DNA of 64,000 nucleotides, from the NCBI GenBank assembly GCA_003244105.1, contig QHBK01000017.1, positions 6,907 through 70,906 on the forward strand, written 5' to 3'. Positions 30,408 to 44,181 of this stretch are shown here, piece by piece. Under the pieces are notes generated by a model. That model ran no database searches and was not told the origin of the DNA. It was given only the letters and a program-made list of their open reading frames with translations. A program made the position numbers and the translations under genes. This stretch comes from Candidatus Eremiobacter antarcticus. Lineage in GTDB: Bacteria > Vulcanimicrobiota > Vulcanimicrobiia > Eremiobacterales > Eremiobacteraceae. Each line of letters begins with the position of its first letter. Position 1 is the first letter of the stretch.

Positions 30408-30956
30408 TCACAACGCGGTTGCCTTCCATGTCAGCTGCGCGGCGTCGAGCGCTCGCGGACACAAAAGCTCGATGGTCGTCTCTTCGTCTGGGCGCAGCTG
30501 CACGATGGTGACGGCCGAGCCCTCTTGACCGTCGCGTGAACGCACGTGCAGCTCGAGCACAGCCGACAGCTTCACGTGACGACGGTTTATCACGCGAGCT
30601 CGCACGATCGGACTGCCTAAGAAATCTTTGGTCACAAACGCGCTGAGAACGGCAAGACGGGCGTCCAACTCGTGAACCGCGCCATCGGCAAACGCAGGTG
30701 TCTCGGTACGGGCAGCAATCAAGAAGTCGCGCAGCTCCGCCTCCCGGCGCTCCATCATGGCGACGCGCAAGAGCCGCGCGACGCGCCGGCGCAGCGCCAG
30801 CTCCGCCGCTTGACTTGCACCTGCCGCTTTGGCGCCTATCGCGCCAGATCTCAGCGAGCGGGCGTGATGCTTTTTGAAATGCGGCGCCTTCGCCGCGTGC
30901 GGTTGAGCGTGTGGCCAAGCCGTCGCCCACACCAGGGCCATAATCACGATCAGCAT
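30408..30956 (-). CDS. hypothetical secreted protein
   Basis: Start taken at MLIVIMALVWATAWPHAQ (signal-peptide-like), transcribed divergently from the GntR operon. The longer track ORF begins 50 codons upstream. Confidence 0.45.
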   Translation of the reverse strand: MLIVIMALVWATAWPHAQPHAAKAPHFKKHHARSLRSGAIGAKAAGASQAAELALRRRVARLLRVAMMERREAELRDFLIAARTETPAFADGAVHELDARLAVLSAFVTKDFLGSPIVRARVINRRHVKLSAVLELHVRSRDGQEGSAVTIVQLRPDEETTIELLCPRALDAAQLTWKATAL

Positions 30957-31013: not shown

Positions 31014-31061
31014 TTGACAACCCACTGACGGTATGTATAATTGTCTTAATTGCTTAAGACA
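31014..31061 (+). promoter_or_regulatory. sigma70-type promoter (TTGACA-16 nt-TATAAT) followed at once by a perfect inverted repeat TGTCTTAA-ttgc-TTAAGACA, the candidate operator of the downstream YtrA-type GntR regulator
   Basis: TTGACA at 31014-31019, TATAAT at 31036-31041, palindrome 31042-31061. This is the only AT-rich patch in a GC-rich intergenic region, ~35 nt upstream of the regulator start. Confidence 0.7.
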
Positions 31062-31095
31062 ATAGGACAGAGAAAACTCCAAACCGTGACGCGCC

Positions 31096-31467
31096 GTGTT
31101 TCGCATCAGTGAAGCCAGCGGAATCCCGGTCTATCTCCAACTCAAGGAGCAGGTGTTGCATCTCATCGCCCTCGGCAGGTTACGGCCCGGCGATCAGCTT
31201 CCGACGGTGCGGGAAGTCGCCGTGGACTTGTCCATCAACCCCAACACTGTCAACCGCGCGTACGCAGACTTGGAGCGCGACGGCTACCTCACGAGCAAAC
31301 GCGGGCGCGGCACGTTCGTCAGCGAGCCTGTGGCCGGCAAAGGCGCTCACGCGCAACAGGACAAGCTGCGCGACATCTCGCGGCGGGCGCTCGCGGAATG
31401 CGATCTCTTCGGGTTCACGGCCGATGAACTGCTGCGCGCCATCAAGCGGCTGAGCCATGCGCCCTGA
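31096..31467 (+). CDS. GntR-family transcriptional regulator, short YtrA-like subfamily
   Basis: 123 aa. Winged-HTH block PVYLQLKEQVLHLIALGRLRPGDQLPTVREVAVDLSINPNTVNRAYADLERDGYLTSKRGRGTFV, then only a short C-terminal helix pair as in YtrA-type regulators. GTG start. Confidence 0.85.
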   Translation: MFRISEASGIPVYLQLKEQVLHLIALGRLRPGDQLPTVREVAVDLSINPNTVNRAYADLERDGYLTSKRGRGTFVSEPVAGKGAHAQQDKLRDISRRALAECDLFGFTADELLRAIKRLSHAP

Positions 31468-31514
31468 AGCGCAACACACCATCCATATCCATGCATAGAC
31501 GGAGGCACCATCTC

Positions 31515-32486
31515 ATGCCAGTGATCACGACGATTCCCCCCACGCCGCCGTCGGGCGCCGCAGTGACCGCCGGACCGCAAGCGCCGCACGTCGGCAATGC
31601 GATCTCTTGGCTGATCGCCGCGATCTGCGTCGGCGCCGGCATCGCTGCGACCATCTTCTCGGAGCAGCCGCTGTACGCGTTCGTCGGCCTTATCCTTGCC
31701 CTGCTCGCCGTGACGTCCATCCAGATCGCGAAGGCGTGGGAAAAGGCGGTCGTGCCGAGACTGGGCCGTTTTCAGGGACTCGTCGGGCCGGGCATCTTCA
31801 TCATCGTTCCGGCGGTTGACAACGTCACCGCTTGGATCGATCAACGCGTTCAGACGAGCACGTTCATGGCCGAGCAAACGCTCACCAAGGACACGGTTCC
31901 GGTGGACGTCGATGCGGTGCTGTTCTGGGTGGTGTGGGACGCGAAAAAGGCTGCTCTCGAGGTCGCATCCTACCGCGACGCCATCGGCTGGGCCGCACAA
32001 ACGGCGCTGCGCGACATCATCGGCACGACCAATCTTGCCGAACTGCTCTCGAACCGCCAAGCGATCGACGCGCATCTGCAACAAGCGATCGACGCGCGCA
32101 CGACGCCTTGGGGGATCACCGTGCAGTCGGTCGAGATCCGCGACATCAAGATCCCTGAAAACCTGCAGGACGCGATGTCACGACAGGCGCAGGCCGAACG
32201 GGAGCGCCAAGCCCGAGTGATTTTGGGAGATGCCGAGCGGCAAATCGCGGAATTATTCCTTGAGGCGGCGAAGTCGTACGTCGATAATCCTATCGCGCTT
32301 CATCTGCGCGCGATGAACATGTTGTACGAAGGCTTGAAGGAGAAGGGCGCGATGATCGTCGTTCCCAGCACCGCGGTTGAGACGATGGGTCTCGGCACCA
32401 TCTCCGGCTTGGCGGCTTTGAGCGGCGCCCGCGCGGGGCTCGCTCCCGACGAGGCGCAGGCCGCTTCCAAAGCGGACGCCTCTTAA
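31515..32486 (+). CDS. SPFH/band-7 (stomatin-like) membrane protein
   Basis: N-terminal TM helix then SPFH domain (IFIIVPAVDNV...VPVDVDAVLFWVVWDAKKAALEV...ITVQSVEIRDIKIPENLQDAMSRQAQAERERQARVILGDAE). GGAGG lies 8 nt before ATG 31515. Confidence 0.88.
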   Translation: MPVITTIPPTPPSGAAVTAGPQAPHVGNAISWLIAAICVGAGIAATIFSEQPLYAFVGLILALLAVTSIQIAKAWEKAVVPRLGRFQGLVGPGIFIIVPAVDNVTAWIDQRVQTSTFMAEQTLTKDTVPVDVDAVLFWVVWDAKKAALEVASYRDAIGWAAQTALRDIIGTTNLAELLSNRQAIDAHLQQAIDARTTPWGITVQSVEIRDIKIPENLQDAMSRQAQAERERQARVILGDAERQIAELFLEAAKSYVDNPIALHLRAMNMLYEGLKEKGAMIVVPSTAVETMGLGTISGLAALSGARAGLAPDEAQAASKADAS

Positions 32487-32513: not shown

Positions 32514-33215
32514 ATGCTTTTTCGGGTCCTGATGATAGCGCTCGCGCTCGGCGGCAGCTCGGCGTCTGCCGCGTTGGCTGCCGATGCGCCGCCTGCGCCA
32601 CCGGACGGCACGTACAGCTATTCCATCGATCGCGCCTCCGCGAACATCGGCACGTCGACCGTCACCGTAAAGCGATCGGGCGACGCGATCATGGTGCACG
32701 AGACGCAGGCGATGCCGGCCCAAAAGTTCGCCGTCACCGTCGATGAGACGCTGGCCGGCTCGCAGCTCGCGCCGAAATCGTACGTCGGAAACTATACGAT
32801 GGAAGGAGGAACTCCAGTGGTGGTGCGCATGAGCTTCAACGGATCGCGCGCAGACGCCACGGTTGACGGCGCGTCGGGTTCGACGTCGCTGAAGCTGCCG
32901 CCACGCATCACGTCGGGTTACGTCATCGAAGGCGCGCTCTTGACCGGCTTTTTGTTTCTGCCCGCACAACTGCACGCTTCCAGGGCGACGGCCTTTGCCG
33001 GCATCGTGCCGAGCAAGCTGACGCAGGTCACGAATACGGTGGATCGCGGCATGAGGCCGGTGCGGCCGCCCGGCGCGCCTGCCAACGACATCGCCGTATC
33101 CATTCGCGGGCCTGTCGATTTTCAAGAGTGGTACGATCCTACGACGTTCGTGCTCGACGCTGTGTCCGTGCCCTCCCAAAACGTCCTCATCCACTTGACG
33201 AAAAGGAGTGGCTGA
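32514..33215 (+). CDS. hypothetical secreted protein (signal peptide, beta-rich)
   Basis: MLFRVLMIALALGGSSASAALAADAPPAPP signal peptide; no recognisable family; coding-like codon usage. Confidence 0.6.
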   Translation: MLFRVLMIALALGGSSASAALAADAPPAPPDGTYSYSIDRASANIGTSTVTVKRSGDAIMVHETQAMPAQKFAVTVDETLAGSQLAPKSYVGNYTMEGGTPVVVRMSFNGSRADATVDGASGSTSLKLPPRITSGYVIEGALLTGFLFLPAQLHASRATAFAGIVPSKLTQVTNTVDRGMRPVRPPGAPANDIAVSIRGPVDFQEWYDPTTFVLDAVSVPSQNVLIHLTKRSG

Positions 33216-33217
33216 AT

Positions 33218-33940
33218 ATGGCGGTTGATGAGCGCGAGATAACTCCCGCGCAGCGGAGCAGCGGCCTGGCCAAGGCGCTGTCGGTGATCATCAGCCCCAA
33301 AGCCGCCTTCGAACAGCTCGCGGCGATGCCCGCTTGGGGCTGGGCGGCGATCATCGGCATCGCTTTGACGCTCGGAGCGGTGTTGCTGTCACTGCACGCG
33401 CAGTCGCATCTCGTTTCGGTCATGCAGGACCAACGGATCGCGCAAATGCCGAGCGAGCAACAAGCCGCAGCCCGGACTCAGCTTGCGAAGTTCGCTTCGC
33501 TGAGCAGTATCTTCATCATCATCGGCGCGCTGGTCGGGCCGTGGCTTGCCTGGCTCATCGCGGCAGTCGTGTTTATCATTGCGGCGGCCTTGGGCGGCGG
33601 CACGGCGACGTTTGGGCGCGCTTGGGTGGCTGCCGTGAACTGCTACATCGTCTACGGGATCGCGGGTCTGGTGAACGCCATCATCCTCTCGCTGCGCGAT
33701 CCGTCGACCGTGAACTCGATGGCGGACGTCATGTCGCTGCCGTCGCTTGCCATGATCGTGCACCCGGGGATCAAGCTGACGGCCTTTCTGTTCAATTACA
33801 ACGTTCTGTATATCTGGTACTACGTGGTCGTCGCGATCGCGCTGTACATCATGTTGAAACTTTCGCGCACCGCTGCCATCGTCACGGCGGTCCTCTACAG
33901 CCTGATTTGGGCTCTGTATCTTTACGCCACCGCCAAGTGA
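33218..33940 (+). CDS. Yip1-domain integral membrane protein
   Basis: AAGGAG 7 nt before ATG 33218. Five hydrophobic helices with the Yip1/YIF1-like arrangement (PAWGWAAIIGIALTLGAVLL...IFIIIGALVGPWLAWLIAAVVFII...). Confidence 0.7.
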   Translation: MAVDEREITPAQRSSGLAKALSVIISPKAAFEQLAAMPAWGWAAIIGIALTLGAVLLSLHAQSHLVSVMQDQRIAQMPSEQQAAARTQLAKFASLSSIFIIIGALVGPWLAWLIAAVVFIIAAALGGGTATFGRAWVAAVNCYIVYGIAGLVNAIILSLRDPSTVNSMADVMSLPSLAMIVHPGIKLTAFLFNYNVLYIWYYVVVAIALYIMLKLSRTAAIVTAVLYSLIWALYLYATAK

Positions 33941-33944
33941 GAGG

Positions 33945-35378
33945 ATGAGGCAGCGACCGTCTGCGCAAGAGCGCGCAGCAGCGTGCGGAATCGCCGGGCT
34001 CCTCTTGTGCGTTGCCCTTGATTCATCGCCCGCGGCGGTCCGCGCCGAGGCGATGCCCGCGCCTAGCCCCGGTCCTTCGATGACGCTGAAGCAAGCCGTC
34101 GATTTCGCGCTCGCGCACAACCCGTCCATCGTTCAGGCGCAGGCGCAAGCGATCGCCGCGGCGGCGCTGCTGACCCGCAACCGTTCCGGGCAGCTTCCGC
34201 AGGTGGCGGCCAACGCCCAGTCGCTGCTGCAGCGCCAGAGCGCCAACAATGCAGGGACGTTCGCTCAGTTCGGACTGCAGCCGACGGCGAATTTCTCGCA
34301 GAACACGAGCCAATTGCTGGGCACAGCCAATGTGATCAATTTCACTTCGACCTTGGAAGCGCGCCAAGCGAAGCGGTCCTACGATGCCGCCGTGCAGAAC
34401 GTGCGGCTGACACGCCAACAGACGACGCTGGCCGTGGAGAGCGGCTACTATGCGCTCGTGCAAGACGCCGACCTTGTCAAGCTGGCAAACGAAGACCTCG
34501 CCTACCAGCGCACCCTGCGCGACATCGCAGACGCAAATTTTCGCGCCGGCAAAGTGGCCGGCATCGACAGGCTCAAGGCCCAGGTGCAGCTCACGTCAAG
34601 CCAGCAGCGCCTGGCGTCCGCACAAGCGGACGTCGACGATGCCCGTCAGAACCTCGCGCAGCTGATCGGCGCGCAGCCGGCGCAAGGCTTCCTTCTGCCC
34701 ACGACCGTCGAGCTGCCGGTCTTGCCGTCTCTCGATCGAGCGGGGCTCGAGACGCTCGCGCTTTCCCAGCGGCCCGAGGTCGCGATCGCGCAAGCCAACG
34801 TGGACAACGCGCGTTACGCCAATGCCCTCGTCGACGCGCCGAACCGGCCGGTCGTGCAGCTGAGCGGCGGCTGGGGCAATCAGACGTCGCCCACGGCCAA
34901 CGCTTTGGCATTCGACCAATGCACGCTCGCGAACCAGAATCTGCCGCTTGCGGTGGCGCCGCTGAATTGCTCGCCGGGCGCCTCGCACTTCTACAACGTC
35001 AGCCTGTCGTCGACGTGGAGCTTGCCACTGCTGGATTGGGGCACGGTGCATGCGGCCCATCTGAGCGCCAGAGCCACCATCGACTCCAACCAGGCCAACT
35101 TGGATGCGGCTCGCAGGCAAGCCGTCGTCGATGTGGATGAGGCCCTGCGGCGCGTCGAAGTCCAGCGCCAAAACCTCGCGCTGGCCGGCGCCAACGCCGA
35201 TATCGCTAAGCAAGTGGCCCAGACGTCTCAAGTGCAGTACAAAGTCGGTCTGATCGGCCAGATCGAAGTGACAGCAGCGCAACAGACGTATTTGCAGGCA
35301 GCCAGGGACTATCTGATCGCGCAGATCGGCTACGTGTTGTCGGCGGAAAAACTGAAGCTGGCGACGGGCTCGCTGTGA
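33945..35378 (+). CDS. TolC-like outer membrane efflux protein (OEP family)
   Basis: Signal peptide, then two-repeat alpha-helical/beta-barrel OEP architecture (LKQAVDFALAHNPSIVQAQAQ..., coiled-coil heptads, LTAAQQTYLQAARDYLIAQIGY). Confidence 0.85.
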   Translation: MRQRPSAQERAAACGIAGLLLCVALDSSPAAVRAEAMPAPSPGPSMTLKQAVDFALAHNPSIVQAQAQAIAAAALLTRNRSGQLPQVAANAQSLLQRQSANNAGTFAQFGLQPTANFSQNTSQLLGTANVINFTSTLEARQAKRSYDAAVQNVRLTRQQTTLAVESGYYALVQDADLVKLANEDLAYQRTLRDIADANFRAGKVAGIDRLKAQVQLTSSQQRLASAQADVDDARQNLAQLIGAQPAQGFLLPTTVELPVLPSLDRAGLETLALSQRPEVAIAQANVDNARYANALVDAPNRPVVQLSGGWGNQTSPTANALAFDQCTLANQNLPLAVAPLNCSPGASHFYNVSLSSTWSLPLLDWGTVHAAHLSARATIDSNQANLDAARRQAVVDVDEALRRVEVQRQNLALAGANADIAKQVAQTSQVQYKVGLIGQIEVTAAQQTYLQAARDYLIAQIGYVLSAEKLKLATGSL

Positions 35379-35413: not shown

Positions 35414-36967
35414 ATGCCGAAATGGCTTCTGATCCTTCTCGTGGCCGCAGGCATCGCCCTGACGATCCTTGTCGGCGCACTCGCGCACCGCGGCGGCCAG
35501 GCGCAAAGCGTGGGCACGATGACGGTCCACCCCAGCACGCTGGTCGTAAAGCTGCCGGAGAACGGCATCGTCTCGCTGCCCCAGACCGCCACGATCGCCG
35601 CGCAATCCACCGGGCCGATCACCTGGATCGGCGTGCATGAGGGCCAACGCGTGAGCCCGGGCGATCTCTTGATGCGGTTGAACGACCGGCAGATCTCGGC
35701 CACCGTCAGCCGCGACAGCGCGGCGCTGGCGCAAGCCGAAGCCGGCCTGCGAAAAGCGGAGCAGACCGCGGCGGTCTCGCCGAACACGAACGTTCAGAAC
35801 GTCGCGCAAGCCCAAGAAACGCTGCTGGCCGCGCAAGCAAAGCTCAAGGCCGACATCAACGGCAAACGAGCAGGGCAGCTGTCGGGGACCGTATCGGGCG
35901 CAGGCTTCGGCTTGAACGGCCAGTCGCAACTGGTCGAGCAGCAGCAAGCGCTTTCCGTGGCCTCGTCGCAACTCCGAACGGCAAAAGAGCGCTACGACGG
36001 CGACAAGGAGCTGTACCGGATCAACGCGTTGGCGCGCCAGCAGCTCGACGCCGACCGAGCTGCCTACGAGCAGGCGCTTTCCGCGAAATTAGCAGCGCAG
36101 CGTCAATACGATCTGACCCTGCGGCAGCTGCGCGATAACTCCGGACAGCTCGATAGCCAGATCGAGGCCGACCGTCATGCCGTCGAAGGCGCCCGAGCGG
36201 CTCTGTCTTCCGCCCAGCTGCAGTCGAAGCAAGACACAGCGGCGGTCGACTTGCGCTCGGCTCAAGCCGGAGTCGACTCGGCGCGCGCGCAGCTCCAGTA
36301 CGACGAGGAGATGCTGGCCGACACTCAGGTGAGGGCGCCGTTCGACGGCGTCATCCAGACGATCGGAAGCACCCCATCATCCAGCGGCGCCTCGAGCGTG
36401 CGCCTGTCGGTCGGCGATGCGGTGCAGCCGGGTCAAGCGCTGTTCACGATCGCGGGCGCCGGTCCCATGATCGTAAGGGCGCAAGTGGACGAGCAAGACA
36501 TCATCAACGTGCACGTCGGGCAGCACGCGTTCATATCGGGCGAAGACTTTCCCGGACGGACGATCGTGGGAACGGTCGTGCGCATCGCTCCGGTGGTGAT
36601 CGCTCAGAACCAGGGGACGACGTCTGCCAAGAACGTGGAGACGACGATCGCTCTCCCCCGCACCTATCCGTTCCTGCGCGACGGCATGTCCGCCGACGTC
36701 GACGTCATCACGGGCAAAACGGCGCACGCGTTGACCGTTCCAAGCTCCGCGGTGGTGAACGAGGGCAAAAAGCGCTTCGTCTTCGTGGCCAAAGACGGCA
36801 AAGCGCGCAAGACGCCGGTCCGGCTTGGCCTCGCCGGCGACACCGACGTGGTGGCCATATCCGGCCTGCACGCAGGCGACGCGGTGATCTTGAGCCCGGC
36901 CGGCCTCAAGGACGGGCAGAAAGTGTCGGCTTCCGCGGCGACGCCGGCGCCCTCACCGAGCGTCTGA
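35414..36967 (+). CDS. periplasmic adaptor / membrane fusion protein (MacA/HlyD family) with unusually long coiled-coil hairpin
   Basis: N-terminal TM anchor, biotinyl-lipoyl-like half (GIVSLPQTATIAAQSTGPITWIGVHEGQRVSPGDLLMRL), ~250 aa of coiled coil, second lipoyl half (VRAPFDGVIQTIG), beta-barrel and membrane-proximal domain. Confidence 0.88.
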   Translation: MPKWLLILLVAAGIALTILVGALAHRGGQAQSVGTMTVHPSTLVVKLPENGIVSLPQTATIAAQSTGPITWIGVHEGQRVSPGDLLMRLNDRQISATVSRDSAALAQAEAGLRKAEQTAAVSPNTNVQNVAQAQETLLAAQAKLKADINGKRAGQLSGTVSGAGFGLNGQSQLVEQQQALSVASSQLRTAKERYDGDKELYRINALARQQLDADRAAYEQALSAKLAAQRQYDLTLRQLRDNSGQLDSQIEADRHAVEGARAALSSAQLQSKQDTAAVDLRSAQAGVDSARAQLQYDEEMLADTQVRAPFDGVIQTIGSTPSSSGASSVRLSVGDAVQPGQALFTIAGAGPMIVRAQVDEQDIINVHVGQHAFISGEDFPGRTIVGTVVRIAPVVIAQNQGTTSAKNVETTIALPRTYPFLRDGMSADVDVITGKTAHALTVPSSAVVNEGKKRFVFVAKDGKARKTPVRLGLAGDTDVVAISGLHAGDAVILSPAGLKDGQKVSASAATPAPSPSV

Positions 36968-36977
36968 GCTACCCGTC

Positions 36978-38177
36978 ATGAAATTCTGGGAGCTGTTCGG
37001 CGTCGCTGTACAGACGCTGTGGACGCACCGCCTGCGTTCTGCGCTCACGATGATCGGCATCGTCATCGGAACAGCTGCGGTCATCGCCATCTTCGGCCTC
37101 GGCCAAAGCGCTTCGTCGGCCATCGGCGGGCTCTTGGGGATGTTCGGCGATCAAGGCATCTACATTCTTCCGGATCAAACAGCGGCTCGCGCCGGGCAGA
37201 CGCACCTCGAATGGCATGACGTCGCGGCGCTGCGAGACGGCTGTACGCGCTGTGCCAAGGTCTTTCCATATTATAGCGGGTCCTATACCATCCGCAGAGG
37301 GCACACGCGCGACGCCTTTGGGCTCTCGTCCGACACCGATTACATCACGGACAAGCTGCCGATGGCCGAGGGCCGGCGCTTCACCGCAGAGGACGTCGCA
37401 GGGGCGCGACCGGTGTGCGATCTGCTGTGGGATGCGAAGAAAAAGCTGTTCGGAGACGGACCCGCCGTCGGCCAGTTCGTGCGCATCGCCGGGCGGCGCT
37501 TCTTGGTGGTGGGCGTGTACAGCAACATCAGCGCCGGTGTTTTCAACGCGTTTGTCGGCAGCGGCGAGACGATTCTGATCCCGTATACCACCTACCGCAA
37601 TCTCGGCGGCGCAACGATGTTGGGGCTGCAGATCTATGCGCAAGCCGGCGCTGCGTCCGGGCAGGTGATCGATCAGGCCGAGGGCATCCTCAAGCGCATG
37701 CACGGCCAGCGCGTGCACTACCAATCGGTCGACACGAGCCAACAAGGCTCGGTTTTTCTCAACGTCGTCGCATATGTCGCGGCCGGCGTCTCAGCGATCG
37801 GCGCCATCGCGCTCGTGGTCGGGGGCATCGGCGTCATGAACATCATGATGGTCTCCGTGATCGAACGCACCCGCGAGATCGGCATCCGCAAGGCGATCGG
37901 CGCCACGCGCAGCGACATCTTGCTGCAGTTCCTCACGGAGTCGATCGCGATCACGCTGTTGGGGGGCGCCATCGGAACGCTGTTGGGGATCGCGGCTGCG
38001 CTCCTCGGAAATGCGCTCTTGATCTCCCAGTTCGCGGGCGCGAGCGCAGCCATCCACTGGGTCCCCATCCTAGCCATGGCGCTGACATCTTCGGTCGCCA
38101 TCGGGCTGTTCTTCGGCACCTATCCGGCGGTGCGCGCCTCCCGCTTGTCGCCCATCGACTGTTTGCGCCATGAATGA
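36978..38177 (+). CDS. ABC transporter permease, MacB/FtsX family (permease 1)
   Basis: N-terminal TM helix, large periplasmic MacB_PCD-like domain, C-terminal FtsX 3-TM bundle (GGIGVMNIMMVSVIERTREIGIRKAIGATRSDILLQFLTES). Confidence 0.88.
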   Translation: MKFWELFGVAVQTLWTHRLRSALTMIGIVIGTAAVIAIFGLGQSASSAIGGLLGMFGDQGIYILPDQTAARAGQTHLEWHDVAALRDGCTRCAKVFPYYSGSYTIRRGHTRDAFGLSSDTDYITDKLPMAEGRRFTAEDVAGARPVCDLLWDAKKKLFGDGPAVGQFVRIAGRRFLVVGVYSNISAGVFNAFVGSGETILIPYTTYRNLGGATMLGLQIYAQAGAASGQVIDQAEGILKRMHGQRVHYQSVDTSQQGSVFLNVVAYVAAGVSAIGAIALVVGGIGVMNIMMVSVIERTREIGIRKAIGATRSDILLQFLTESIAITLLGGAIGTLLGIAAALLGNALLISQFAGASAAIHWVPILAMALTSSVAIGLFFGTYPAVRASRLSPIDCLRHE

Positions 38178-39403
38178 CGGAAAGCGGCAACTCGGTGGTT
38201 CATAAAACTGCCGAATTTCTGCGTCAGGCGATCGAGACGCTGTGGAACAACCGATTCCGGTCGTTGCTGACAATGCTCGGGCTGATCATCGGCGTCGGCT
38301 CGGTCATCGCCATTCTCGCGGTGGGCGATGCCACAAATCGTTCAGTGCAAAACCTGCTCTCGCAATACTCGCAAGCGTCGAGTTTCGTGGTCGCCAAGCA
38401 GACGCAGCCTGATTTCCAAAACGCGGCCATCCGCTACACGGACGCCCGAGCAGTGGCCAAGGCCGTGCCGCAGGTCAAAGCGGTCATCCCCATCATGGTG
38501 ATCCCCATGACGACGACCGTGCGGCACCGCACCAAGACCATCACCGTCATCACGGCCGGCGCGGGCGTCGGCTTTGACGCAAGCGCGCTTGAGGCTGGGC
38601 GCCGCTTCACTCCGCTGGAAGTCGCCGCGCACCGGCACGTCTGCATCTTGTCGTACGACGCGCGCAACACCATCTTCTCCCCCGGCGCCGCGGTCACCGG
38701 AAGCAGCGTGCGGCTGAACGGAAGCTATTACACCGTGGTCGGAGTCCAAGCCAAACCGCTCAACGCGGGGCTCCTGCAAAGCGACAGCGGTTCGGAGACG
38801 GTCACGGTGCCCTACACGCTCATTCCAGAGTTCGGTTATTCTTACGTGGCGGGACTGTCCATCGTGAGCGATCCGGAGCATGTCACGCAAGACGGCAATG
38901 CGGCCATCGACGCGCTCAAGAAAATCCACGGTCAGCGCTCGCAGTACCAAGAGCGCGACATCAAGACACTCAACGAGGGCATCGCCAAAGTCTTCACCGT
39001 GTTGACCGGGGTCATCGGCGTCATCGCCGGCATCTCCCTTTTGGTGGGCGGGGTCGGCATCATGAACATCATGCTCGTGTCGGTGACCGAGCGGACGCGC
39101 GAGATCGGCATTCGTAAGGCGGTGGGCGCCGCGCGCACGGATATTCTGCTGCAGTTCTTGAGCGAAGCTTTGGTCATGTGCTTGGCAGGCGGGCTCATAG
39201 GCCTGTGCGGCGGCGTCGGCCTCGCGGAGCTTGTCATCCACACGCTCATCATCAAGCTCACGGGAACGGTCGTCGCATTTTCTTGGGCGCCCATCGTGAC
39301 GATCGCGGTGGTCTTTTCCGCCGGCGTGGCGCTCGTGTTCGGCACGTATCCGGCCGTGCGCGCATCCTACCTCGATCCCATCGAGTGCTTGCGCTTTGAG
39401 TGA
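38174..39403 (+). CDS. ABC transporter permease, MacB/FtsX family (permease 2, distinct paralog)
   Basis: Same architecture as permease 1 but divergent in sequence (GGVGIMNIMLVSVTERTREIGIRKAVGAARTDILLQFLSEA). Start overlaps the previous stop (ATGA). Confidence 0.88.
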   Translation: MTESGNSVVHKTAEFLRQAIETLWNNRFRSLLTMLGLIIGVGSVIAILAVGDATNRSVQNLLSQYSQASSFVVAKQTQPDFQNAAIRYTDARAVAKAVPQVKAVIPIMVIPMTTTVRHRTKTITVITAGAGVGFDASALEAGRRFTPLEVAAHRHVCILSYDARNTIFSPGAAVTGSSVRLNGSYYTVVGVQAKPLNAGLLQSDSGSETVTVPYTLIPEFGYSYVAGLSIVSDPEHVTQDGNAAIDALKKIHGQRSQYQERDIKTLNEGIAKVFTVLTGVIGVIAGISLLVGGVGIMNIMLVSVTERTREIGIRKAVGAARTDILLQFLSEALVMCLAGGLIGLCGGVGLAELVIHTLIIKLTGTVVAFSWAPIVTIAVVFSAGVALVFGTYPAVRASYLDPIECLRFE

Positions 39404-40145
39404 GACGCTCGCGCAGCCGCTGTCCGCTCGGGGCATCCCTTCTGTGCAGGAGCGCGCCGTCATCGACATCACCGACATGACCAAGGTCTACGAGCTCGGC
39501 GACATCAAGGTACCGGCGCTGCGGGGAGTTTCGTTCCGCATCGCGGCCGGCGACTATGTCGCCATCATGGGTCCGTCCGGCTCGGGCAAGTCGACGTTGA
39601 TGAACATCATCGGCTGCCTCGATCAGCCGACCAGCGGGATCTACCGTCTGGACGGCATCGACGTCGCAAACTTGGACGATCGGGAGCTGGCTGCCATCCG
39701 CCTGAGCAAGCTCGGCTTCGTGTTCCAGGGTTTCAACCTGCTCGCGCGCACCACGGCGCTGCGCAACGTCGCCCTGCCCTTGTTCTACGCCGGCGACCGC
39801 GACCGAGACAAAAAGGCTCAACGGGTGCTGGAGAAAGTGGGCTTGGGCGACCGGGTGCAGCATCGCCCGAACGAGCTCTCGGGAGGTCAGCAGCAGCGGG
39901 TGGCCATCGCGCGAGCGCTTGTCAATGACCCCGCGGTGTTGCTGGCGGACGAGCCGACCGGCAACTTGGACTCGGCGACCGCCGAGGACATCATGGCGCT
40001 GTTCGCGGACCTCAACAGCGAAGGCCACACCATCATCATCGTGACGCACGACGACGACGTGGCAAGCCACGCGCGCCGCATCATCCGTTTGCGAGACGGG
40101 CTGGTCATAAGCGATGAGAGCGGCGCGAGAAATCGTCCCCTGTAG
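39396..40145 (+). CDS. ABC transporter ATP-binding protein, MacB/LolD-type
   Basis: Walker A GPSGSGKST, Q-loop, signature LSGGQQQRVAIARAL, Walker B LLADEPTGNLD, H-loop THDDD. Overlaps the upstream permease by 8 nt. Confidence 0.92.
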   Translation: MSETLAQPLSARGIPSVQERAVIDITDMTKVYELGDIKVPALRGVSFRIAAGDYVAIMGPSGSGKSTLMNIIGCLDQPTSGIYRLDGIDVANLDDRELAAIRLSKLGFVFQGFNLLARTTALRNVALPLFYAGDRDRDKKAQRVLEKVGLGDRVQHRPNELSGGQQQRVAIARALVNDPAVLLADEPTGNLDSATAEDIMALFADLNSEGHTIIIVTHDDDVASHARRIIRLRDGLVISDESGARNRPL

Positions 40146-40175: not shown

Positions 40176-40209
40176 TTGACGGTTAGCACTCTCGGTGTTA
40201 AACTGCTAA
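40176..40209 (+). promoter_or_regulatory. CIRCE-like inverted repeat (HrcA-operator type) overlapping a candidate promoter upstream of htrA
   Basis: TTAGCACTC-tcggtgtta-AACTGCTAA at 40183-40209 versus consensus TTAGCACTC-N9-GAGTGCTAA (left half 9/9, right half 7/9). TTGACG at 40176-40181 and TAAACT at ~40198-40203 could serve as -35/-10. Confidence 0.55.
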
Positions 40210-40404
40210 CGCAGTTACGGCTATCGCGTTCACGCGCTTCGGGACAAGCCGGATTCCCCGTCTTTTGGCAACAATTCGGTTCGCTCGCGGGTAAGTATGT
40301 ACGTGTCGATCCAGTCGCAGTTCGTGCGGGCTACCTGCGCGCAGCATCGCCATGGGATAACGGCCTCCCATCCGCGGCCGGCCTTTACAGGAGTGAAACT
40401 AAAG

Positions 40405-41673: not shown

Positions 41674-41696
41674 GCTCGCCGGCACAGCCGGCGAGC
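41674..41696 (+). promoter_or_regulatory. perfect 10-3-10 inverted repeat GCTCGCCGGC-aca-GCCGGCGAGC in the dnaK leader, just downstream of a TATATT -10-like hexamer
   Basis: Read directly at 41674-41696, 23 nt upstream of the dnaK ATG. Could be an operator overlapping +1 or an attenuator hairpin. Confidence 0.4.
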
Positions 41697-43620: not shown

Positions 43621-44181
43621 ATGCCGGAGTCCGAAGACCTCGACTCTGCTGCGAGTGCGCAAGTTCCGGGAGTCGACGAGACGCCTGCCGATGGGCAGGC
43701 GTCGACCGATTCTGAGGCGCTGCGCGCCGAGTTAGAGAAGAGCAAGAATCAAGCGGAAGAACAGCGCCAGCTGTACGTGCGCGCGCTCGCTGATTTCGAC
43801 AACTACAAGCGGCGTATGGATCGGGTGATGGCTGACCGCTCGGCAGAAGGCAGGCGCGACGTGCTCAAGCGCCTGTTGCCGGTGCTCGACAATCTCGAGC
43901 GCGCGGCGCAGTACCGCCAAGCGGGCACGCCAGCGGAGCAGCTCGTGGACGGGCTGCTCGCCACCGTCAAACAGTTCATGACCGTGCTCGAAGCCGAGGG
44001 CGTGCAGCCCATCGACTTGATGGGAAAGCCGTTCGATCCCAAGCTCGGAGAGGCGGTCGGCACGCGCCAGGTTCCGGATACGCCAGATGACGTCGTCCTC
44101 GACGAGGCACGGCGCGGCTATATGATCGGACAAGACGTCTTGCGTCCGGCGCAAGTCATCGTTTCCAAGTCCGCGCAGTAG
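43621..44181 (+). CDS. grpE: nucleotide exchange factor GrpE
   Basis: 186 aa; coiled-coil N-terminal region, LRALADFDNYKRRMDR, and C-terminal beta-sheet arm GKPFDPKLGEAVG. Confidence 0.9.
   Translation: MPESEDLDSAASAQVPGVDETPADGQASTDSEALRAELEKSKNQAEEQRQLYVRALADFDNYKRRMDRVMADRSAEGRRDVLKRLLPVLDNLERAAQYRQAGTPAEQLVDGLLATVKQFMTVLEAEGVQPIDLMGKPFDPKLGEAVGTRQVPDTPDDVVLDEARRGYMIGQDVLRPAQVIVSKSAQ

Follow-up and report, generated by a model that had tools for sequence, protein, structure and literature searches.

In this study, we analysed a palindromic sequence and the genes around it in a 64-kb stretch of DNA, referred to here as the window, which has a G+C content of 63%. The palindrome precedes a gene cluster on the + strand, the first gene of which (31096-31467) has a GTG start codon and encodes a 123-aa GntR regulator (PF00392) of the YtrA subfamily, the presumed binder of the palindrome. 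After 24 nt this gene is followed by one for an SPFH/Band 7 (stomatin/flotillin-like) membrane protein (31491-32486, + strand; PF01145, 1e-34) and then, all on the same strand, by genes for a 233-aa protein (32514-33215), which is syntenic in orthologous loci and for which no Pfam or NCBIfam match was found, a Yip1-domain/YknW-like membrane protein (33215-33940; PF04893, 2.5e-10), a TolC-like outer membrane efflux protein (33945-35378; PF02321, 2e-41), an HlyD-type adaptor (35414-36967; PF13437 and PF16576), two MacB/FtsX permeases (36978-38177 and 38174-39403; PF12704 and PF02687 in each) and an ABC ATPase (39396-40145; PF00005). The Yip1-domain protein also matched the YknW family model NF052650 (YknW_fam) at 6.9e-18, which is under the cut-off of that model.

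The genes behind gntR are separated by gaps of 0-36 nt, no terminator signal above background was detected within the cluster, and the next promoter-like site lies at 40176-40204, before htrA at 40297. The operon therefore probably ends with the ABC ATPase gene, at 40145. Based on spacing, strand and synteny, we infer that the ABC genes 5.5 kb downstream are co-transcribed with gntR; in that case the permease and ATPase genes (36978-40145), which are not adjacent to the regulator gene, would make this an ABC-transporter operon of the kind that is typical of the YtrA subfamily. Upstream, and divergent from the cluster, lie a gene for a 182-aa protein (30408-30956, minus strand) and a gene for RNase J. 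The product of the 182-aa ORF is hydrophobic at its N-terminus and matches no Pfam or NCBIfam family; in Eremiobacterota-like loci the ORF is kept, at 36-46% identity, between the RNase J gene and the regulator gene. The order RNase J, 182-aa gene, divergent gntR, SPFH, 233-aa gene, Yip1, TolC and HlyD is retained wherever contigs are long enough, the TolC and HlyD genes being syntenic in loci L133 and L135.

That the gene next to the palindrome encodes a GntR protein, as proposed in the initial annotation, was borne out by its match to the GntR winged helix-turn-helix domain (PF00392; 65.6 bits against a cut-off of 27, 3e-18, residues 13-75). The protein is identical (100%, full length) to a "GntR family transcriptional regulator" from a Candidatus Eremiobacter antarcticus MAG. 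Its closest relatives of solved structure are 3neu (125 aa), 6sbs (121 aa), 3by6, 4ham and 4r1h, most of which aligned near full length; 6sbs, which is YtrA of Sulfolobus acidocaldarius, aligned over the full length at 1.7e-14. Since these closest solved relatives, including YtrA of Sulfolobus, are all short YtrA-type proteins of 113-134 aa, the regulator can be assigned to the YtrA subfamily of GntR regulators. This is in agreement with its length and alignments, with about 45 aa following the helix-turn-helix, where a reduced C-terminal domain of about 50 aa in a protein of about 120-130 aa is typical. The best NCBIfam match was PmtR (NF047563), at 70.7 bits against a cut-off of 200, and the Rv1152 family (NF053730) scored 60.8 against a cut-off of 170; with both scores below the cut-offs, the regulator is not an equivalog of PmtR or Rv1152. 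No second GntR gene was found in the 64-kb window.

The regulator gene is preceded by a promoter in which a -35 hexamer TTGACA (31014-31019, + strand) and a -10 hexamer TATAAT (31036-31041, + strand) are separated by a 16-nt spacer. It agrees with the consensus at 12 of 12 positions and is the sole such match within the surrounding 2.3 kb. From the position of the -10 hexamer, transcription is predicted to start at A31048/A31049, within the left arm of the palindrome. In the 15 nt preceding the GTG codon at 31096 we noted no recognisable Shine-Dalgarno sequence; an AGGA is present 29 nt 5' of the regulator start.

Around the -10 hexamer the window (31030-31070) reads ggtatg-TATAAT-TGTCTTAA-ttgc-TTAAGACA-ATAGGACA. 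The initial annotation had described a perfect 8-4-8 palindrome abutting the -10 box at 31036-31061. The palindrome is real and lies inside this range, which however also includes the TATAAT hexamer (31036-31041), and the 8-4-8 inner core, TGTCTTAA-ttgc-TTAAGACA at 31042-31061, does begin directly after TATAAT. Complementarity nevertheless runs 2 nt further on each side, and the arms are therefore 10 nt long: the repeat finder returned a perfect 10-4-10 palindrome of 24 bp, ATTGTCTTAA (31040-31049)-ttgc-TTAAGACAAT (31054-31063), which was also identified by a weight matrix. In this longer form it shares 2 nt with the end of TATAAT, and it ends 33 nt before the regulator start. Its GT (31043-44) and AC (31059-60) are 14 nt apart, and thus lie far from the centre, as in YtrA-type operators. 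Readings of the site as a CRP/FNR-type or LexA-type operator were set aside on the consensus spacing that we take those operators to have.

The palindrome is the sole one of its kind in the window. No second copy with up to 3 mismatches was found in the 64-kb window and no match was found in any of 100 shuffles of it; nor does the window hold another perfect palindrome that is AT-rich and has arms of 10 nt or more. The initial annotation had likewise found no other such AT-rich palindrome in the intergenic regions. Perfect palindromes with 10-nt arms numbered 3, against about 1 expected per shuffle, and the remaining two are GC-rich and intragenic. One of these, GCTCGCCGGC-aca-GCCGGCGAGC (41674-41696), lies at the listed start of the dnaK ORF (41671), just 3' of htrA, and the other, GACGCCTGCC-gatg-GGCAGGCGTC (43680-43703), lies inside grpE. 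As such, and leaving its context aside, the palindrome is only modestly improbable, and it owes its significance to its position and conservation. A weight matrix built from the orthologous sites with the window's own site left out gave the site a score of 36.4 bits; no other position in the window scored above 1.0 bit, and the maximum over 30 shuffles was 17.6. By this measure no second operator site is present in the 64-kb window. An overlapping palindrome in a register shifted by 8 bp (31049-31070) was considered and rejected as a full site, with a score of 1.0 bit and without the TGT in orthologs; only its right half (ATAGGACA) is conserved.

The conservation of the site was assessed in metagenomic loci. 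When metagenomes were scanned with the regulator protein, 80 loci were recovered. Of these, the 21 with upstream sequence and a protein identity of 54-82% were taken as the orthologous set, to which the related MAG locus L022 was added. One site of the form T-TGTCyyAA-N4-yTArGACA-A is present in 21 of 21 orthologous loci and in L022. It ends 21-39 nt before the start codon and begins 0-6 nt after the -10 hexamer, and a -35 hexamer, TTGACA or TTGACT in all 21 orthologous loci, is found 22-29 nt before the palindrome in every locus with enough upstream sequence. Two arrangements occur. Where the distance from the -35 hexamer to the palindrome is 22-24 nt, as in the window, the -10 hexamer (TATAAT, TATACT, TATCAT or TAGAAT) abuts the palindrome; in the other orthologs, with a distance of 28-29 nt, a -10 hexamer of the TATTAT/TATAAT type lies 5-6 nt 5' of it. 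The predicted start and the 15-20 bases transcribed first lie within the site in all orthologous loci. Strong sites number exactly one per orthologous locus, and no second sites were found in the 114 kb of flanks.

Among the 22 sites the outer bases T-TGT...ACA-A are invariant (22 of 22), and they show no covariation. Perfect symmetry is the exception: perfect 8/8 palindromes occur in only 2 of the 22 sites, those of the window and L022, and on average 6.3 of 8 positions are complementary. At inner arm positions C-A and A-C mismatches recur, for example where TGTCTCAA stands opposite CTAAGACA. With so few perfect sites and such inner mismatches, the element fits two degenerate protein half-sites rather than a maintained stem.

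The conserved element extends beyond the palindrome. Directly after the right arm lies an extra half-site-like box, ATAGGACA (31062-31069, + strand), within which the AGGA noted above is located. In the window GACA recurs in it 8 nt after the GACA of the right arm (9 nt in L138); of the 22 sites, 18 keep ATAGGACA or ATGAGACA and 21 have a GACA after the right arm. In L138 (3934-3962) and L139 the two form a perfect tandem, CTAGGACAA-CTAGGACAA, and in L136 (592-627) four half-sites are present, TGTCTTAT-TGTCTTAA-tgca-CTAAGACA-ATTTGACA. On the left, the flank TGTATAAT (31034-31041) is the -10 region and matches the half-site at 5 of 8 positions; the core and the flanking half-site-like boxes together make up a block of 36 bp (31034-31069). 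Judged by its conservation, the third half-site at 31062-31069 is a predicted part of the operator element. Its function as a half-site is inferred from the secondary half-sites of Sulfolobus YtrA, and would thus rest on analogy.

The same core is found far beyond the orthologous loci. When genomes, one for each species, were scanned for TGTCTTAA-N4-TTAAGACA, at least 119 matches were obtained. In 22 of the 119 matches listed, a YtrA-type GntR gene oriented away from the core lies 24-98 bp downstream of it and is mostly followed by an ABC ATPase gene; these 22 come from Actinomycetes (~70% G+C), Clostridia, Spirochaetota and the Eremiobacterota-like MAG L022. As a rough estimate, the probability that a random position lies up to 200 bp upstream of a YtrA-type gene is of the order of 1e-4, so 22 of the 119 matches listed represent a very large excess over a chance expectation far below 1. 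Across four phyla, YtrA-type regulators that share only 30-50% identity reuse exactly this 20-bp core. Among the remaining matches listed, 34 of the 119 have the core as the centre of longer hairpins in low-GC genomes, and 52 of the 119 are unclassified and mostly from AT-rich genomes, where the pattern is expected by chance. In the full-text literature, TGTCTTAA and TTAAGACA were found only in unrelated eukaryotic and viral papers.

The last 11 of the 119 matches listed, all from Acidobacteria, raise the question of whether the site might be an operator for another factor encoded elsewhere, for example of the BlaI/MecI type or another winged-helix repressor, with the adjacency of the GntR gene being incidental. 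In these 11 genomes (L003, L005, L007, L008, L017, L035, L074, L098, L106, L110 and L112) the same 8-4-8 core is located about 105 bp from a BlaI/Penicillinase_R gene (Penicillinase_R, 8.5e-24), and because the core also occurs at BlaI-type genes, its sequence alone does not identify the binder. However, the acidobacterial sites differ in position and in their extended form, TATGTCTTAAT..ATTAAGACATA, which stands beside a TTGAC box, and the window contains no BlaI-type gene (tblastn with an acidobacterial BlaI-like query, best E = 4.1). Moreover, the site stays linked to a YtrA-type gene in the 21 orthologs, in about 23 distant homologs and in at least 22 exact matches while the neighbouring genes change, and the sequence of the half-site tracks the clade of the regulator, as described below. 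We therefore regard an unrelated binder as very unlikely. The acidobacterial sites themselves look like a separate conserved regulatory unit with a look-alike operator, in the arrangement TTTGAC-N4-6-TATGTCTTAAT-N2-ATTAAGACATA with the BlaI/Penicillinase_R repressor gene divergent; in at least three of these loci (L017, 1121-1360; L098, 1126-1350, minus strand; and L106) the core is also present upstream of a gene for a ~75-aa CxxC protein.

The linkage of site and clade is seen in the about 23 distant homologs, of 40-50% identity, which also have an SPFH gene downstream. Here the repeat is TGTACTAA-N4-CTAGTACA, in the form TTGACT-TGTACTAA-tgaa-CTAGTACAAT or CTAGTATAAT; it fills the spacer between the -35 and -10 hexamers, and its right arm, CTAGTAYA, holds the -10 hexamer (TACAAT/TATAAT). 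The two clades differ at arm position 4, where a symmetrical switch separates the C:G of the window's clade from the A:T of the distant one, and the recognition helix reads INPNTVNRAY in the former and VNANTVARVY in the latter. Such a parallel change hints at co-evolution between site and regulator protein, although it is confounded with phylogeny.

YtrA-type regulators have usually a single site and control an autoregulated ABC-transporter operon, and they are rare in divergons (PMC4494728); bacterial YtrA motifs are typically 24 bp long (PMC6746942). The window fits this description: its 24-bp site is single, belongs to the promoter of the regulator's own operon and overlaps the -10 hexamer and the predicted +1, and the regulator and operator show all the defining features of the YtrA type that can be tested in silico. 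B. subtilis YtrA and the groups described by Suvorova et al. 2015 (PMC4494728) share with the window the length of the regulator (about 120-130 aa), a long palindrome in which GT/AC lies far from the centre, and a single site at an autoregulated ABC-transporter operon. In those groups, however, the regulator gene is directly followed by an ABC ATPase gene, whereas the window has an SPFH gene in this place, and the tripartite transporter encoded there resembles MacAB-TolC and comes with a YknW-like protein.

Three characterized regulators, all of which bind long palindromes, are close enough in design to be compared further. PmtR of S. aureus is likewise a short GntR regulator and the product of the first gene of an ABC-exporter operon that it represses, and it protects 36 bp over the start of the pmtR-pmtABCD operon (PMC5080381), which is the size of the block 31034-31069 in the window. 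On the other hand, its host is a monoderm Firmicute, its operon lacks SPFH, TolC and HlyD genes, and PSM peptides, which are not known from Eremiobacterota, are what releases it. In Sulfolobus acidocaldarius, YtrA (PDB 6SBS) is the repressor of the membrane-protein operon to which its own gene belongs; the operator there is centred on the transcription start, and secondary half-sites add affinity (PMC6746942). The start-centred operator, the flanking half-sites and the very small regulon can all be counted as likenesses, while the archaeal BRE/TATA promoter and the core motif of 14 bp differ from the promoter and 24-bp repeat of the window. For MbrR of S. salivarius it has been reported that G3 and C20 of the palindrome are essential, that the regulon comprises ABC exporters and a flotillin, and that the repressor is released through capture by its ABC ATPase (bioRxiv 10.64898/2026.02.18.706565). 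The window 22-mer TTGTCTTAATTGCTTAAGACAA has the same two bases, G at position 3 and C at position 20. MbrR, a YtrA-like repressor that governs the Mbr bacteriocin-defence regulon, has a palindromic promoter motif of the same geometry, is autoregulated together with an ABC exporter and has a flotillin-like (SPFH-family) gene in its regulon; it differs in acting at five separate promoters, compared with one site in the window that is followed by the SPFH and efflux genes as a single cluster, and in that capture by the ATPase has been shown for MbrR and is conjecture for the window regulator.

Taken together, we consider it highly probable, on the strength of the sequence comparisons, that a dimer of the YtrA-type protein binds across positions -8 to +16 and represses its own gene, the SPFH gene and probably the whole YknW/MacAB-TolC-like cluster. 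The suggestion in the initial annotation that the palindrome is an autoregulatory GntR operator is in this respect supported in silico by the conserved site at 21 orthologs, the exact core upstream of YtrA-type genes and the clade-matched half-sites. Its further claim that binding would occlude the transcription start is also a reasonable reading, since the site covers approximately -8 to +16 of the predicted promoter, and the operators footprinted for PmtR and Sulfolobus YtrA likewise cover the start. According to this model, a dimer of the 123-aa protein would bind the 24-bp inverted repeat with one winged helix-turn-helix per T-TGTC / GACA-A half-site, the half-site centres being 16 bp apart. 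Given that the site lies over a consensus sigma-70-type promoter, the bound repressor would then stop RNA polymerase from forming or leaving the open complex, and through this block the regulator would repress itself and the co-directional genes behind it, namely the SPFH, Yip1/YknW-like and TolC/HlyD/MacB-type ABC efflux genes. The likely contribution of the extra half-site ATAGGACA is added affinity or the recruitment of further subunits. In B. subtilis, YknWXYZ protects against the SdpC toxin. This role, the gene content of the cluster and the Mbr system point to envelope or antimicrobial-peptide-type stress as the condition after which repression would most likely be released, possibly via a ligand or peptide, or because a membrane partner, for instance the ABC ATPase, captures the repressor.

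The same protein might act on this site other than by simple self-repression, either as an activator or by controlling the divergent gene 30408-30956 as well, from an operator common to both directions. The location of the site in a divergent intergenic region would be consistent with this, as would the synteny of the upstream gene with the regulator gene in Eremiobacterota. However, a site 3' of the -10 hexamer is in the position of a repressor and not of an activator; it is 86 nt from the divergent start codon and beyond the -35 hexamer of the + strand promoter, and the promoter scan detected no minus-strand promoter for the divergent gene. In addition, YtrA-type sites are almost never common to divergent operons (PMC4494728), and the gntR-SPFH unit of the distant clade is surrounded by unrelated genes. 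We give this reading as little credence as that of an unrelated binder.

Least probable of all, and already largely refuted, is the idea that the repeat acts as a 5'-terminal stem-loop of the mRNA (in stability, translation or attenuation) and not as protein-binding DNA: a perfect 10-bp stem with a 4-nt loop could indeed form, and orthologs with a -10 hexamer 5-6 nt further upstream would transcribe almost the whole repeat, but a predicted start at about 31048, within the left arm, would leave most of that arm out of the transcript, the predicted leader is no more stably folded than its shuffles (z = +1.39) and has no Rfam match, U-tract or terminator signature, and full complementarity in 2 of 22 sites, fixed inner C-A/A-C mismatches and invariant outer TGT/ACA without covariation are not the compensatory changes expected of a 5'-UTR hairpin or attenuator, which would also have to be transcribed and be more stable than chance. 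Furthermore, the repeat of the distant clade, lying between the -35 and -10 hexamers, is untranscribed promoter DNA and not an RNA hairpin.

A start-site operator for a self-repressing YtrA-type regulator is an ordinary and well-understood type of switch, newly documented here in a soil bacterium of an uncultured phylum, and the site in the window leaves the existing understanding of how GntR/YtrA repressors act unchanged. Its value lies rather in providing a testable regulator-operator pair, with a consensus promoter and an operator logo, for Eremiobacterota, a candidate phylum without genetics. The predicted regulon, with its SPFH protein and YknW/MacAB-TolC-like exporter, points to a function in envelope or antimicrobial-peptide defence. 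The reuse of the core and the conserved pairing of regulator and SPFH genes beyond the phylum should in addition help in annotating regulons and provide a compact repressor/operator part.

This pairing was observed in about 50 metagenomic loci (L120-L197), in which a YtrA-type GntR gene is directly followed by an SPFH/Band 7 gene at regulator identities down to about 40%. In the distant homologs, the operator, gntR and SPFH gene form an isolated group, flanked by unrelated housekeeping genes and without an ABC transporter in the vicinity. In L163 (3998-5265) and L154 (3989-5256), for instance, the neighbours are hisI, a Ser/Thr kinase gene and an AdoHcy hydrolase gene, and from such unrelated neighbours the YtrA-SPFH pair looks like a two-gene unit that is complete in itself and has its own operator. 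Apart from the flotillin in the MbrR regulon, the literature search turned up no paper on the pairing of GntR and SPFH proteins. By analogy with MbrR and its capture by the ABC ATPase, one could speculate, though we think it rather unlikely, that operator, gntR and SPFH gene form a widespread, self-contained membrane-stress switch, in which the YtrA repressor, itself without a ligand pocket, is captured by the SPFH partner or by membrane complexes that SPFH organises, and the extra half-sites set a cooperative threshold. Within the distant clade, the ACA of the right arm is ATA in 10 of the 23 sites, which makes for a better -10 hexamer and less symmetry. Finally, in many of the loci L141-L197 the start codon follows only about 11 nt after the palindrome, which suggests that their mRNAs are leaderless or near-leaderless.
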